Shown here in pieces: positions 13,364 through 16,125 of a stretch of DNA of 17,495 nucleotides. The notes below the pieces were generated by a model that saw only the letters and a list, made by a program, of their open reading frames with translations, ran no database searches and had not been told where the DNA came from. Each line of letters starts with the position of its first letter. Position 1 is the stretch's first letter. Source of the DNA: a virus; the UHGV virus genome UHGV-0117107; one strand, written 5' to 3'. Both the position numbers and the translations under genes were made by a program.

Positions 13364-14500
13364 TTATGTGTTCCCGGACAGCATCCCAATGATTTCTCTA
13401 TCCGATAGTTTCGTGTTCGGATGTTGTTTACGATAATTATTTATCGCTTTTGTGTTAAAAGCATATGATACTCCTACTGGAACAGTTGCTCCCAAAGCAT
13501 ACGTAGCTCCCTTTTTTGAGCCAGTTATTATTTTGTTGACGTAGTCTTCAGCTTTCTGTATTTTCTTAGCTTGATCAAGATTCTTTGAAATCTCATCAAC
13601 CGTTAATTCTCTAAAATTAGTTACAGAAATCTTTCCTTTCGCATCAAATACTATGAGAGGATTTTTTGTCTTGTAGTCATTAAACTTCATATCGTTAATG
13701 TCTTGAATAGCATTATATCCTTTTGATTTCATAGCACTATAAAATGTTTTGGATGAATATGAATCATGATTCCCAGCTAATTTAGAATTGAAATTTTCAT
13801 ACAGTTTTGATAACTCACTATCTGTATACGTTCCGAATTTAGCAAATCTTATAGGCTTTTCATTCGAACTTATAGAGCTTGGTAGATTATGTACATACTC
13901 TGCGAACTTTTTATCATTCTTATAAAGATCTTTGAATACTTTCTTCGCATTATTCTTAGAAGCAACTTTGACATCATCTTTAACTAATAAAGACATCACA
14001 TATGCTTTTCCAGTCTGTTGATATCGTTCTCTACCAAGTTTACCTGCATATTTTATGTTATCGGTTTTCTTGTATGAAGCGAAGAAATTATCGTATAACT
14101 TTCCTCCGGTATCTTTCATCTCTACTCGTTGCAACAACTTTCCAGACTTTATAGTTTTATCACAGTAATCTTTAATGTACTTATTTGTTGCATATGCAGC
14201 TATCGAAGCAACTGTGATACCGGCTGTTATGGCTATGATTTTCTCAGTTTTGATACGTCTATCAGCCGCCATCTTAGCCTGTTTAGGACTCATCCCTTTG
14301 CTAATATACTTAGATTCAATCCTCGATCTGTGACTCGATCTATTTGTGCTCTTATCGGATTCGTTTTGGTATTTATTCTTTCCAGCATTAGTGAGAGAAC
14401 CGTCTTTATTTTGGTAACGTCTTATTCCCCATTTCATGCCTTTTACACCGTAATGGTAGAGTTCATCTGTAGAAGTTATTCTTGAAATTGCATACTCCAT
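13364..14500 (-). CDS. Paralogue P3 of the YHxGxKGxKWGxRR family (378 aa): N-terminal module, one hydrophobic helix, C-terminal domain shared with P2
   Basis: The N-terminus is ...TDELYHYGVKGMKWGIRRYQNKDGSLTNAGKNKYQ. The hydrophobic segment is IIAITAGITVASIAAYA (aa 88-104). C-terminal motifs FYSAMKSKGYNAIQDINDMKF..YKTKNPLIVFDAKG align with P2. SD AAGAGGTAGGTGAGTCAAAATG. Confidence 0.7.
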   Translation of the reverse strand: MEYAISRITSTDELYHYGVKGMKWGIRRYQNKDGSLTNAGKNKYQNESDKSTNRSSHRSRIESKYISKGMSPKQAKMAADRRIKTEKIIAITAGITVASIAAYATNKYIKDYCDKTIKSGKLLQRVEMKDTGGKLYDNFFASYKKTDNIKYAGKLGRERYQQTGKAYVMSLLVKDDVKVASKNNAKKVFKDLYKNDKKFAEYVHNLPSSISSNEKPIRFAKFGTYTDSELSKLYENFNSKLAGNHDSYSSKTFYSAMKSKGYNAIQDINDMKFNDYKTKNPLIVFDAKGKISVTNFRELTVDEISKNLDQAKKIQKAEDYVNKIITGSKKGATYALGATVPVGVSYAFNTKAINNYRKQHPNTKLSDREIIGMLSGNT

Positions 14501-14517
14501 TTTGACTCACCTACCTC

Positions 14518-15576
14518 TTAACTCAAATACTTATCAAGTTTACGGTTCACATAAGAATCGCACTCCGACACACTCTTCGTTCCGAGCTTAGATACGAAAC
14601 CAACTGTATTAGCTCCGATTTCCTTAACGATTCTTTCTGAATTGTATTTTCGATACAGCTTGTCTACAATTTTAGGATTCGCTTCGGTTACAGACTGAAG
14701 TTTCACCGAATCTGTATCAAACACAATCATAGGTCTTTTCGCATGATAACTTGAATACTCCTTATCGTTATAGTCAAGTAAAGCATTATAACCTTTCTTC
14801 TTTAACTCTGAGTAGAAACGATTTTGTGCAGCTATCTCTTGTTGATTATGGTTTACAAGGGATAGATTCAGAGCCTTATAGATAGCCACCTTTTCAGAAT
14901 TTCTAAGTTTACTTGGATCTTTCTCCAAAGCATTTTGAGCTTGTTTAAATAGAACCTGTTGAGTAGGTCGCCGCATCTTCTCTTTAGAGTCAGCTATCGA
15001 AGCCTCTACATTCTTCTTAAACTCTGGCTCTTTCAATAAGTTTGCGGTTATGTAGCCAGCGTTCTCATCTGACGGAACTTTCAACTTCTTCACAGTTTCC
15101 AGTTTCAACTGATAAACCTTCATATTATTGCTTTTATCTCTTAGAGATTTTGCAACGTTGAAATCTTCCTCACTGCCGGTTGCCTCAGCCTGTTTCTCAG
15201 CACGTCTTGCATCCGAAGCAGCTCTACTCGTAAGATTCTTACCAAATAATCCGAGATACTTATCCATGTCTTTCTTTTTATATGTAGCGTAGAATGCGAA
15301 ATTCTCGAATTCTTTTGAAGTCTGGATTCGAGCGAATGTAGTACCTTTTCTTAAATATGTATCAACGTACTGCTTACCTGTGACTTGAGTTTTGACAGTG
15401 TTTTTTAATTCAGAAACTTTCATACTCATTAACGTAGTCTTTTTCTGTGTGATATGAGTATCTGAAGAATTCTGATATCGTTTCTTACCAGATGGTGTCA
15501 ATGTTCCGTCAGCATACTGATATCTCCTAACACCCCACTTTTGACCTTTAACGCCGTGATGATAAAGTTCTTCCAT
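14518..15576 (-). CDS. Paralogue P2 of the YHxGxKGxKWGxRR family (352 aa): N-terminal module plus C-terminal domain shared with P3
   Basis: The N-terminus is MEELYHHGVKGQKWGVRRYQYADGTLTPSGKKRYQ. The C-terminal FYSELKKKGYNALLDYNDKEY..YHAKRPMIVFDTDS aligns with P3. The start lies only 3 nt after the P1 stop and the SD is weak, which suggests coupling. Confidence 0.7.
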   Translation of the reverse strand: MEELYHHGVKGQKWGVRRYQYADGTLTPSGKKRYQNSSDTHITQKKTTLMSMKVSELKNTVKTQVTGKQYVDTYLRKGTTFARIQTSKEFENFAFYATYKKKDMDKYLGLFGKNLTSRAASDARRAEKQAEATGSEEDFNVAKSLRDKSNNMKVYQLKLETVKKLKVPSDENAGYITANLLKEPEFKKNVEASIADSKEKMRRPTQQVLFKQAQNALEKDPSKLRNSEKVAIYKALNLSLVNHNQQEIAAQNRFYSELKKKGYNALLDYNDKEYSSYHAKRPMIVFDTDSVKLQSVTEANPKIVDKLYRKYNSERIVKEIGANTVGFVSKLGTKSVSECDSYVNRKLDKYLS

Positions 15577-15579
15577 AAC

Positions 15580-16125
15580 TTACTTACCACTTAGCGCTTT
15601 GATGGCTAAAGCAATGCTTAATGCCGACCCGGTTACTGCTAAAACATCACCGGTGGTTTCTAGCATTCTACTAGCATACTCGCGTCCTTTCGTGGTTTTT
15701 TGAGGAGCAAACATATCATTATATTGTTTCTCCAAAAGAGCTCTATTAATCTGATCACGCATTTCTTTATCGGTCATGTTGCTTAAGTCCATCTTTTGTT
15801 TCGGATTATTTCTGATAGACTTATCGGTCATGGTCTTTATATTACGGCTCAGTCCAGCAGTAGCATCGGTCAAAGATTTGGTTCTTTCCAAGTCTTCTTT
15901 AACATATCGTCTAGCATCTGCTATGTTGTCAGTTCGACCGTTCTTTTTAGACTGCTTATAATAAGTACCAGTAGACTCATCATACTTATTAAATTCTTTT
16001 TCTCTAGAGTCTCTTTCATATCTCTTCTGACCTTTTTCAGTAAGAGTACCATCCTTGTTCTGGTATCTTCTTACTCCCCATTTCATGCCTTTAATTCCAT
16101 GATGATAGAGTTCATTATTGTCCAT
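15580..16125 (-). CDS. Paralogue P1 of the YHxGxKGxKWGxRR family (181 aa): N-terminal module plus C-terminal hydrophobic helix
   Basis: The N-terminus is MDNNELYHHGIKGMKWGVRRYQNKDGTLTEKGQKRYE. The C-terminal segment is VLAVTGSALSIALAIKAL (aa 161-178). SD GGAAAGGAGGTAATTCAAAATG lies inside the 3' end of the upstream gene. Confidence 0.7.
   Translation of the reverse strand: MDNNELYHHGIKGMKWGVRRYQNKDGTLTEKGQKRYERDSREKEFNKYDESTGTYYKQSKKNGRTDNIADARRYVKEDLERTKSLTDATAGLSRNIKTMTDKSIRNNPKQKMDLSNMTDKEMRDQINRALLEKQYNDMFAPQKTTKGREYASRMLETTGDVLAVTGSALSIALAIKALSGK

Follow-up and report, generated by a model that had tools for sequence, protein, structure and literature searches.

In phage T4, Alt, which is an ADP-ribosyltransferase, and the internal proteins IPI-III are basic proteins with a short N-terminal targeting peptide that are packaged into the head and injected with the DNA. 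Podoviruses have ejection proteins, represented by gp7, gp16 and gp20 of P22 and gp14-16 of T7. The signal-anchor-release (SAR) domains of SAR endolysins and pinholins are weakly hydrophobic helices, rich in glycine, alanine, serine and threonine, that have membrane-inserted and released states. How DNA and proteins of tailed phages pass the cytoplasmic membrane of Gram-positive bacteria is poorly understood, and the proteins that travel with phage DNA are likewise poorly known. For the MuF polymorphic toxins of temperate phages, loading into the head and delivery with the DNA were hypothesized by Jamet et al. (2017, PMC5576092), where T4 Alt is cited among the injected ADP-ribosyltransferases (ARTs), and a pre-ejectosome of cyanophage A4 has been described (PDB 9k3a; PMC12002296). 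Here we analyze a window, the whole stretch of 17,495 nucleotides (nt) from virus genome UHGV-0117107, in which four adjacent paralogous genes, P1 to P4, lie in the head module and two of their products, P1 and P3, carry a single hydrophobic helix.

P1-P4 most likely constitute an array of cargo proteins tagged with the DUF7211 peptide and belong to a siphovirus similar to phage 1706. P1 and P3 would be virion-carried effector or ejection proteins co-delivered with the DNA, their weakly hydrophobic helix acting as a membrane-insertion or oligomerization element, and we judge the chance that this reading is correct to be about even. The ejected-protein reading is the best supported because the genes lie among packaging and head-module genes, the proteins are very basic, the tag is common to annotated structural proteins and fusions to toxin- or effector-type domains occur. 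The features on which the argument depends, with lengths and positions in amino acids (aa), isoelectric points (pI) and scores against Pfam family PF23847, are as follows.

15580-16125, minus strand: P1, 181 aa, pI 9.7, mostly helical; PF23847 at 41.7 bits
16060-16119, minus strand: DUF7211 motif of P1 (aa 3-22)
15592-15645, minus strand: C-terminal hydrophobic helix of P1 (aa 161-178), VLAVTGSALSIALAIKAL; the uncharged stretch reaches aa 157 (nt 15657)
14518-15576, minus strand: P2, 352 aa, shares the globular domain of P3, without the hydrophobic helix; PF23847 at 27.1 bits
13364-14500, minus strand: P3, 378 aa, composed of tag, basic linker, hydrophobic helix and alpha/beta domain; PF23847 at 40.4 bits
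14411-14473, minus strand: DUF7211 motif of P3 (aa 10-30), with a predicted local distance difference test score (pLDDT) of 43-60 in the monomer model
14189-14239, minus strand: hydrophobic helix of P3 (aa 88-104), IIAITAGITVASIAAYA, within a predicted 41-residue helix (aa 72-112)
13511-14164, minus strand: globular alpha/beta domain of P3 (aa 113-330), with a fold resembling the ADP-ribosyltransferase/NADase superfamily by structure comparison only
12762-13334, minus strand: P4, 190 aa, pI 10.2, without the hydrophobic helix; PF23847 at 42.8 bits

DUF7211 corresponds to PF23847, a hidden Markov model of 25 positions with a gathering cut-off of 27 bits, which all four proteins reach, P2 at the borderline. 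The conserved N-terminal peptide of P1-P4 is ELYHYGVKGMKWGVRRY. P2 and P3 are further related over the whole domain (29% identity, BLASTP E 2e-28), with the alignment gap falling at the P3 helix, and both P3 and P4 match phrog_35934, "virion structural protein". The pI values of the four proteins span 9.7-10.2, compared with values below 7 for 12 of the 16 other window proteins. An AF2 model of P1 (pLDDT 66) places a helix at aa 146-179, and the low-confidence prediction of the P3 motif region is what would be expected of a short docking peptide. Database searches returned 2,949 relatives of P3 and more than 7,800 of P1, the latter with about 70% identity among the best 120 homologs, whereas a DNA search of GenBank phages gave no near match for the array. 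The family as a whole runs to thousands of proteins from phages of Firmicutes and Actinobacteria.

The genomic setting of the family is uniform. DUF7211 open reading frames (ORFs) adjoin homologs of the large terminase (TerL), portal or connector in all 112 fetched loci, and 388 of 396 lie within 3 kb of them, figures that carry an ascertainment bias toward the head-module context as the loci were fetched via relatives of P1 and P3. Arrays comprise one to eight genes per locus, most commonly three or four (83 loci from IMG/VR and GenBank), and P1-P4 fits this pattern as four adjacent genes between connector and TerL. Rhodococcus phage ReqiPepy6 has eight DUF7211 genes near TerL and portal; its gp019 is annotated as "structural protein" and its gp020 as "hypothetical membrane protein", and both have a helix at the equivalent place, which in gp020 is the P3 position. 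In Lactococcus phage 1706, gp07 is annotated as "structural protein"; it contains the motif twice and lacks a helix. The labels of gp07 and gp019 are GenBank/RefSeq annotations of distant family members; the structural proteins of phage 1706 were reportedly identified by mass spectrometry. Literature searches returned no mention of DUF7211 or its motif string, and we found no published account of the array organization, of the cargo polymorphism, of the helix conservation or of the toxin-like fold. The family is thus catalogued and uncharacterized.

The position of the DUF7211 motif varies within the family. Besides the two copies in 1706 gp07 (2501-3889), a metagenomic protein of 1051 aa (P0362) has four, at aa 11, 329, 630 and 931, and in ReqiPepy6 gp013 (487-2082) the motif lies downstream of a LigT/2H phosphoesterase domain. 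Internal and repeated copies resemble fused modules, so the motif may possibly mark processing sites as well.

Hydrophobicity was measured with Kyte-Doolittle windows of 19 residues and with a Hessa-type apparent insertion energy (dGapp), the parameters of which were entered by hand and calibrated on glycophorin A, Lep H1, cytochrome b5, T4 lysozyme, poly-L and poly-A. The controls gave -2.4 kcal/mol for glycophorin A, -2.6 for Lep H1, -0.7 for the cytochrome b5 tail and +4.2 for T4 lysozyme. The best dGapp was +0.55 kcal/mol in P3 and +1.04 in P1, compared with +5.6 in P2, +6.5 in P4 and at least +3.28 in each of the 16 other window genes, and the Kyte-Doolittle maximum reached 1.55 in P3 and 1.80 in P1. 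Membrane-like segments thus occur in P1 and P3 only among the real genes of the window. A shuffled sequence attained the observed dGapp in 7 of 300 trials for P3 and in 1 of 300 for P1. The two helices are therefore more hydrophobic than any soluble protein of the window and less so than a classical single-span anchor. Because their hydrophobic moment is close to zero (0.04-0.16; P3 0.04, P1 0.07-0.16) and 53-63% of their residues are glycine, alanine, serine or threonine (G/A/S/T; 61% in P3), they are uniformly yet weakly apolar and not amphipathic. The P1 helix ends three residues from the C-terminus (178 of 181), its uncharged run measures 15-19 aa, and the median dGapp of its homologs is +1.6. 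Its location would suit a tail-anchored protein, in which a single transmembrane segment lies within about 30 residues of the C-terminus, but the short uncharged run and the dGapp values make such an anchor doubtful.

An initial annotation of this DNA had already located the helices at these residues, exactly so on checking the sequence, and its description of both as rich in Ala, Gly, Ser and Thr and of the P3 N-terminal region as basic is borne out, with 20 Lys and Arg against 9 Asp and Glu in aa 1-87. By the simple measures used here, neither segment looks like the soluble amphipathic helix that the annotation had named as the alternative. Its likening of the segments to glycine zippers needs correction, as the conserved pattern is small-xxx-small with mostly Ala and not a canonical glycine zipper. 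That annotation did not extend to the DUF7211 identity, to the toxin-like cargo fold shared by P2 and P3 or to the occurrence of the helix across the family.

Other candidate membrane segments were set aside. A second segment of P3, aa 333-350, was rejected as a transmembrane domain (TMD), being weakly apolar with a dGapp of +2.4 (family median +2.3). An ORF on the plus strand at 14175-14333 encodes 52 aa from an ATG start with two strongly hydrophobic segments and runs opposite the P3 helix codons; like the other hydrophobic plus-strand ORFs, it was discarded as an artefact antisense to a one-strand operon, and it probably arises as a side effect of the Ala-rich coding sequence of the opposite strand.

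The helix recurs across the family. Of the 120 best P3 homologs, 118 have it as their most hydrophobic segment in the same place (median dGapp +0.52), and the two homologs without it are N-terminally truncated fragments. Conservation reaches 90% or more at residues A93, T96, A99 and Y103, and the helix columns alternate small and large apolar residues in an Ala-based small-xxx-small ladder, A90-G/A94-A98-A102. In P1 relatives the string VLAVT[SG]SAL[GS]IALAIKEL is almost invariant (120 homologs), with columns 161-175 near-invariant among 57 homologs. This conservation argues that the helices are functional. When the globular domain of P3 was used by itself in a full HMMER search, 875 clusters at 50% identity were recovered; among 119 tag-bearing cluster representatives, drawn from the best 150 and sharing at most 50% pairwise identity, 107 have the helix, at a median of 85 aa past the motif. 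Tag, basic linker, apolar helix and globular domain are hence the standard architecture, and the helix-less P2 is a minority form. Across all motif-bearing ORFs of the 83 loci, a helix scoring under 1.2 in dGapp occurs in about one third.

The cargo behind the tag is polymorphic. Among 110 non-redundant DUF7211 proteins, eight carry PF15644, a papain-fold toxin (glutamine deamidase) domain, two carry a GNAT acetyltransferase domain and one, ReqiPepy6 gp013, carries a 2H phosphoesterase domain. For the globular domain of P3, structure comparison gave Z scores of 7.2 with diphtheria toxin, 7.0 with MbcT, 6.9 with Chelona toxin, 6.4 with SAIP, 5.8 with PARP15, 5.6 with Tne2, 5.5 with Tse6 and 5.2-5.4 with RES toxins, which are moderate values obtained from one predicted model. 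Agreement with Foldseek is weak, the best PDB match of the P3 model being chain B of 9k3a (E 8e-3, TM score 0.24). The P2/P3 domain gave no family match in Pfam (E up to 5, 75 homologs), in NCBIfam or by profile against the PDB. Its invariant residues are D147, Y151, Y234, K258, G261, D267 and D270; none is His, Arg or Glu, and neither an H-Y-E nor an R-S-E triad was found. Given the missing sequence-level support, the lack of a catalytic triad and the weak Foldseek agreement, we call the predicted fold tentatively ART/NADase-like and make no claim of activity. On the basis of this toxin-like fold of the ADP-ribosyltransferase/NADase type, P2 and P3 may be effectors co-delivered with the DNA.

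Every gene called in the window is on the minus strand, and the order of modules matches that of phage 1706 and of Rhodococcus phages ReqiPepy6 and ReqiPoco6. The genes surrounding the array are listed from the right end of the window.

16904-17248, minus strand: 114-aa protein, first gene from the right end
Between the 114-aa protein gene and the connector gene, minus strand: HNH endonuclease
16115-16480, minus strand: phage connector protein (PF24829, E 2e-42), directly upstream of the array, with P1 next
10985-12718, minus strand: TerL (PF20441; 75-85% identity to annotated TerL genes by tblastn), directly downstream of the array
10650-10895 and 10035-10631, minus strand: 81-aa gene and gene for a 198-aa collagen-like protein, between TerL and portal
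8749-10020, minus strand: portal
Downstream of the portal, minus strand: protease-capsid fusion (6654-8399), then head-tail and tail genes
2819-4237, minus strand: endolysin with GH25, CHAP and two CW_7 domains (Pfam), embedded in the tail-gene module
2426-2803, minus strand: tail-completion protein, after the endolysin
Left end of the window, minus strand: tape measure gene, start only, continuing past the end

The nearest record is MT835495 from human faeces, collinear gene for gene with the window and sharing 85% identity in TerL, 67% in P1 and 72% in P2. It has no P3, and P4 is matched only weakly, by a DUF7211 ORF past the terminase gene (11130-11633). The TerL protein of the window (10985-12718) is 75-76% identical to TerL of Streptomyces and Rhodococcus phages, and the phage itself has about 39% GC and is gut/Firmicutes-like; this cross-phylum relationship of TerL was discussed previously (bioRxiv 10.1101/842583). 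The 198-aa collagen-like protein consists of long G-X-Y repeats and has no syntenic counterpart in MT835495, and the 81-aa gene has a Pfam match to PF21825, "Sequestin", in a contig annotation. At the right edge, 14 of 14 independent metagenome contigs with the first gene start about 248 nt upstream of that gene. Because all of them start there, the right edge of the window would be the physical genome end, which suggests a fixed terminus (cos or another defined end). The last stretch, 17249-17495, is about 250 nt long and non-coding.

A sequence of events can be proposed for the array. By analogy with the capsid-targeting sequence of T4 and the portal-bound MuF and gp7 proteins (PMC5576092), the N-terminal peptide would serve during assembly as a docking or targeting tag through which the very basic proteins enter the head. 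At infection, P1-P4 would leave the virion together with the DNA. The helices of P3 and P1 may have two states, soluble or bundled in the capsid and inserting or oligomerizing in the host membrane upon ejection, where they could form part of a DNA conduit or else anchor or translocate the C-terminal domain. The toxin-like domain of P3, and that of the helix-less P2, would then be delivered as an effector along with the DNA, much as T4 Alt is. In its broadest form, which we regard as possible although doubtful, DUF7211 would be the delivery tag of an unrecognized and widespread system in which siphovirus heads load arrays of polymorphic effectors and inject them with the DNA, with the SAR-like helix inserting into the membrane or carrying ART-fold cargo of the P3 type across it; such a system would be a phage counterpart of T6SS Tse6- or diphtheria-type translocation and a functional analog of MuF toxins and T4 Alt.

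Several observations weigh against P1 and P3 being virion-carried, membrane-active proteins. Their helices are marginal rather than classical anchors, since both dGapp values are positive. In P1, just 15 uncharged residues precede K176, or 19 if T157-G159 are counted, and the P3 helix has basic residues on both flanks and thus gives no positive-inside signal. An internal or repeated motif does not fit a strictly N-terminal signal. The case for virion presence of P1 and P3 orthologs comes from the annotations of distant members, one of which, 1706 gp07, has no helix. The weak match to the 9k3a pre-ejectosome may result from long helices. Finally, P3 and P4 appear to be accessory, because P3 is missing from the nearest relative and P4 has only a weak counterpart there.

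The arrangement of lysis genes bears on whether the helices could instead belong to a lysis system. As the initial annotation had stated, no holin flanks the endolysin, which overlaps its upstream gene (4234-4794) by 4 nt and is followed by a gap of 15 nt; the endolysin ATG overlaps the stop codon of that upstream gene (ATGA). TM-like ORFs of the window other than P1 and P3 are only antisense or out-of-frame overlaps. One of them, an out-of-frame ORF of 74 codons inside the endolysin gene (3325-3549, minus strand), was considered as a hidden holin and has one weak hydrophobic stretch; it was judged a chance ORF, given its TTG start and the lack of a Shine-Dalgarno sequence. In MT835495 the same slot, between the phrog_4338 and tail-completion genes, holds a non-homologous endolysin (17386-18351) with Amidase_2 and SH3_3 domains. 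On these sequences the slot resembles a conserved site of insertion at which cassettes are exchanged, unlinked to the holin. A Hol44 holin (PF16079, phrog_1129) lies 20 kb beyond the endolysin of MT835495, past the tail-fiber genes, and IMG/VR contig 3300045988_169689 has a P1 homolog and a Hol44 holin together. In phage 1706 the holin (orf3) and the endolysin (orf73) are at opposite genome ends, and the ReqiPepy6 holin is annotated separately from the DUF7211 genes. Many gut contigs of 90-100 kb carry Hol44 holins without an adjacent endolysin, which makes unlinked lysis genes the normal state of this lineage. In many gut-phage contigs of 50-100 kb, the Hol44 holin is followed by conserved genes of 144 aa and 55 aa, a serine recombinase and a repressor, an arrangement that suggests that these relatives are temperate.

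Among the three readings offered by the initial annotation, that of membrane-active ejected proteins is the one we retain as best supported, and that of P1 and/or P3 as the holin of this phage or as an unconventional lysis partner for the endolysin (2819-4237) is in our view very improbable. The 17.5-kb window contains no holin gene, the phage's own holin was not located (contig ena:ERZ27333792:k113_23120 of the same phage was covered to about 10 kb of its 96.5 kb, and the Hol44 variants P0260, P0258 and P0301 led to other contigs), and small-residue-rich helices do resemble pore-lining or SAR-type segments. Nevertheless, P1-P4 gave no holin-family match in Pfam or PHROGs, and the P1 and P3 genes lie 9-12 kb from the endolysin in the head module. 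Their layout also departs from that of holins, which are small membrane proteins having one or more clear TMDs and ending in a short charged C-terminus, with P3 having 378 aa and a 270-aa soluble domain, P1 having 181 aa and its helix at the extreme C-terminus, and dGapp being marginal in both. The collinear MT835495 has its same-slot endolysin together with an ordinary holin and lacks P3 altogether. The annotation had named a standard holin elsewhere as the finding that would count against it; such holins are present in MT835495 and 3300045988_169689, and the evidence is at the level of the lineage. Because close relatives thus have an ordinary holin elsewhere, as also recorded for phage 1706, ReqiPepy6 and the gut contigs, the helices most likely do not belong to a hidden lysis system. 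A role as late membrane proteins of the producing cell, for instance in anchoring prohead or portal assembly, in antiholin-like timing of lysis or in blocking superinfection, has little probability, if somewhat more. One apolar helix combined with large soluble domains formally resembles the layout of T4 holin T, with its one TMD, or of membrane-bound assembly factors. ReqiPepy6 gp020 bears a membrane-protein annotation, and a structural homolog in Arthrobacter phage Qui is named "Membrane protein". However, there is no signal peptide and no positive-inside bias, the tag-sharing paralogs P2 and P4 have no helix, and the shared tag and the toxin-type cargo would be left unexplained. Exclusion proteins, the third reading, do not fit a late structural operon: P1 and P3 lie in such an operon and have no N-terminal anchor, while exclusion genes are generally known from lysogeny or early modules and not from between connector and terminase, and exclusion proteins of the Sie/Ltp type have a lipoprotein or N-terminal membrane anchor.

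A purely internal role in structure or assembly competes more seriously, though we still hold it to be unlikely. P1-P4 would then be head-core, scaffold-like or DNA-condensing proteins, and the helices would be buried packing interfaces of a capsid-internal oligomer, with no membrane step and no effector activity. Such a role would agree with the head-module position and the very basic pI, with near-invariant small residues of the kind typical of tight helix packing, with the positive insertion energies and with models of P1 and of the N-terminal part of P3 that are mostly helical and of low confidence. P1 in particular, conserved at about 70% identity and kept in MT835495, behaves like a core structural part. 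On the other hand, uniformly apolar, non-amphipathic helices are unusual for soluble coiled coils, a pure scaffold would have no need of the toxin and enzyme domains found in the family, and copy number and content differ between close relatives.

If P1-P4 are cargo proteins delivered with the DNA, the DUF7211 family offers a tractable entry to this step of infection, with a short conserved tag, a conserved weak helix, swappable cargo and an abundance in human-gut phages. Isolated and culturable representatives are available in Lactococcus phage 1706 and in phages of Rhodococcus, Gordonia, Arthrobacter and Streptomyces. Should the tag be a head-loading signal, it could be used for loading engineered cargo into phage particles, and should the cargo domains be active toxins or modifiers, phage-delivered polymorphic toxins would extend beyond MuF. 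For annotation, helices of the P1 and P3 type should not be called holins, and the endolysin of this lineage is to be expected in the tail module, unlinked to the holin.

Comparison with described systems places the array between several of them. The holins (Hol44/PF16079 and class III T4 T) share one apolar helix, T4 T being a single TMD followed by a large soluble domain; P1 and P3 differ in that they match no holin family, are encoded in the head module and have a large basic soluble domain, and relatives carry a true Hol44. To SAR domains the P3 and P1 helices are similar in composition (53-63% G/A/S/T) and in a dGapp of about +0.5 to +1, but a SAR domain is the N-terminal signal anchor of a lysis protein, whereas the helices of P3 and P1 begin at aa 88 and aa 161 and the proteins have no lysis-family match. 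The N-terminal TMDs of Tse6 and the T domain of diphtheria toxin are analogies only, since P3 has one helix, no hairpin or T domain, and would be delivered via phage ejection. The podovirus ejection proteins are stored in the capsid, leave it together with the DNA and function at the host envelope, as proposed here for P1 and P3, and 9k3a chain B is the best Foldseek match in the PDB; this match is weak, there is no sequence homology, and the present phage is a siphovirus with a tape measure.

The MuF toxins are closer. As in the array, a gene of the packaging/head module encodes a conserved N-terminal module joined to a C-terminal part that varies among toxin or enzyme domains, in MuF proteins ADP-ribosyltransferases included (PMC5576092). 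However, no MuF domain (PF04233/PF06152) was found in P1-P4 with Pfam, and the MuF gene lies just downstream of the portal whereas the DUF7211 array lies upstream of TerL and the post-portal gene here is a 111-aa ORF. The DUF7211 tag is only about 25 aa long and occurs in arrays of one to eight paralogs, and most P3-type members have a hydrophobic helix, while the word "transmembrane" occurs 0 times in PMC5576092. DUF7211 and MuF proteins thus have a common architecture and not a common ancestry. With the T4 internal proteins and Alt, the array shares the placement of one short peptide, probably for targeting, on several unrelated proteins, P1-P4 and the diverse cargo of the family. It differs in the lack of any sequence relationship, in the hydrophobic helix, which the T4 proteins do not have, and, with respect to Alt, in the assignment of P2 and P3 to the ART fold by structure only, the R-S-E triad lacking. 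Judged by analogy, the P1-P4 system falls outside the MuF toxins and the T4 Alt and internal proteins by the tests that define them, yet these are the systems that it would most resemble in the way it works.

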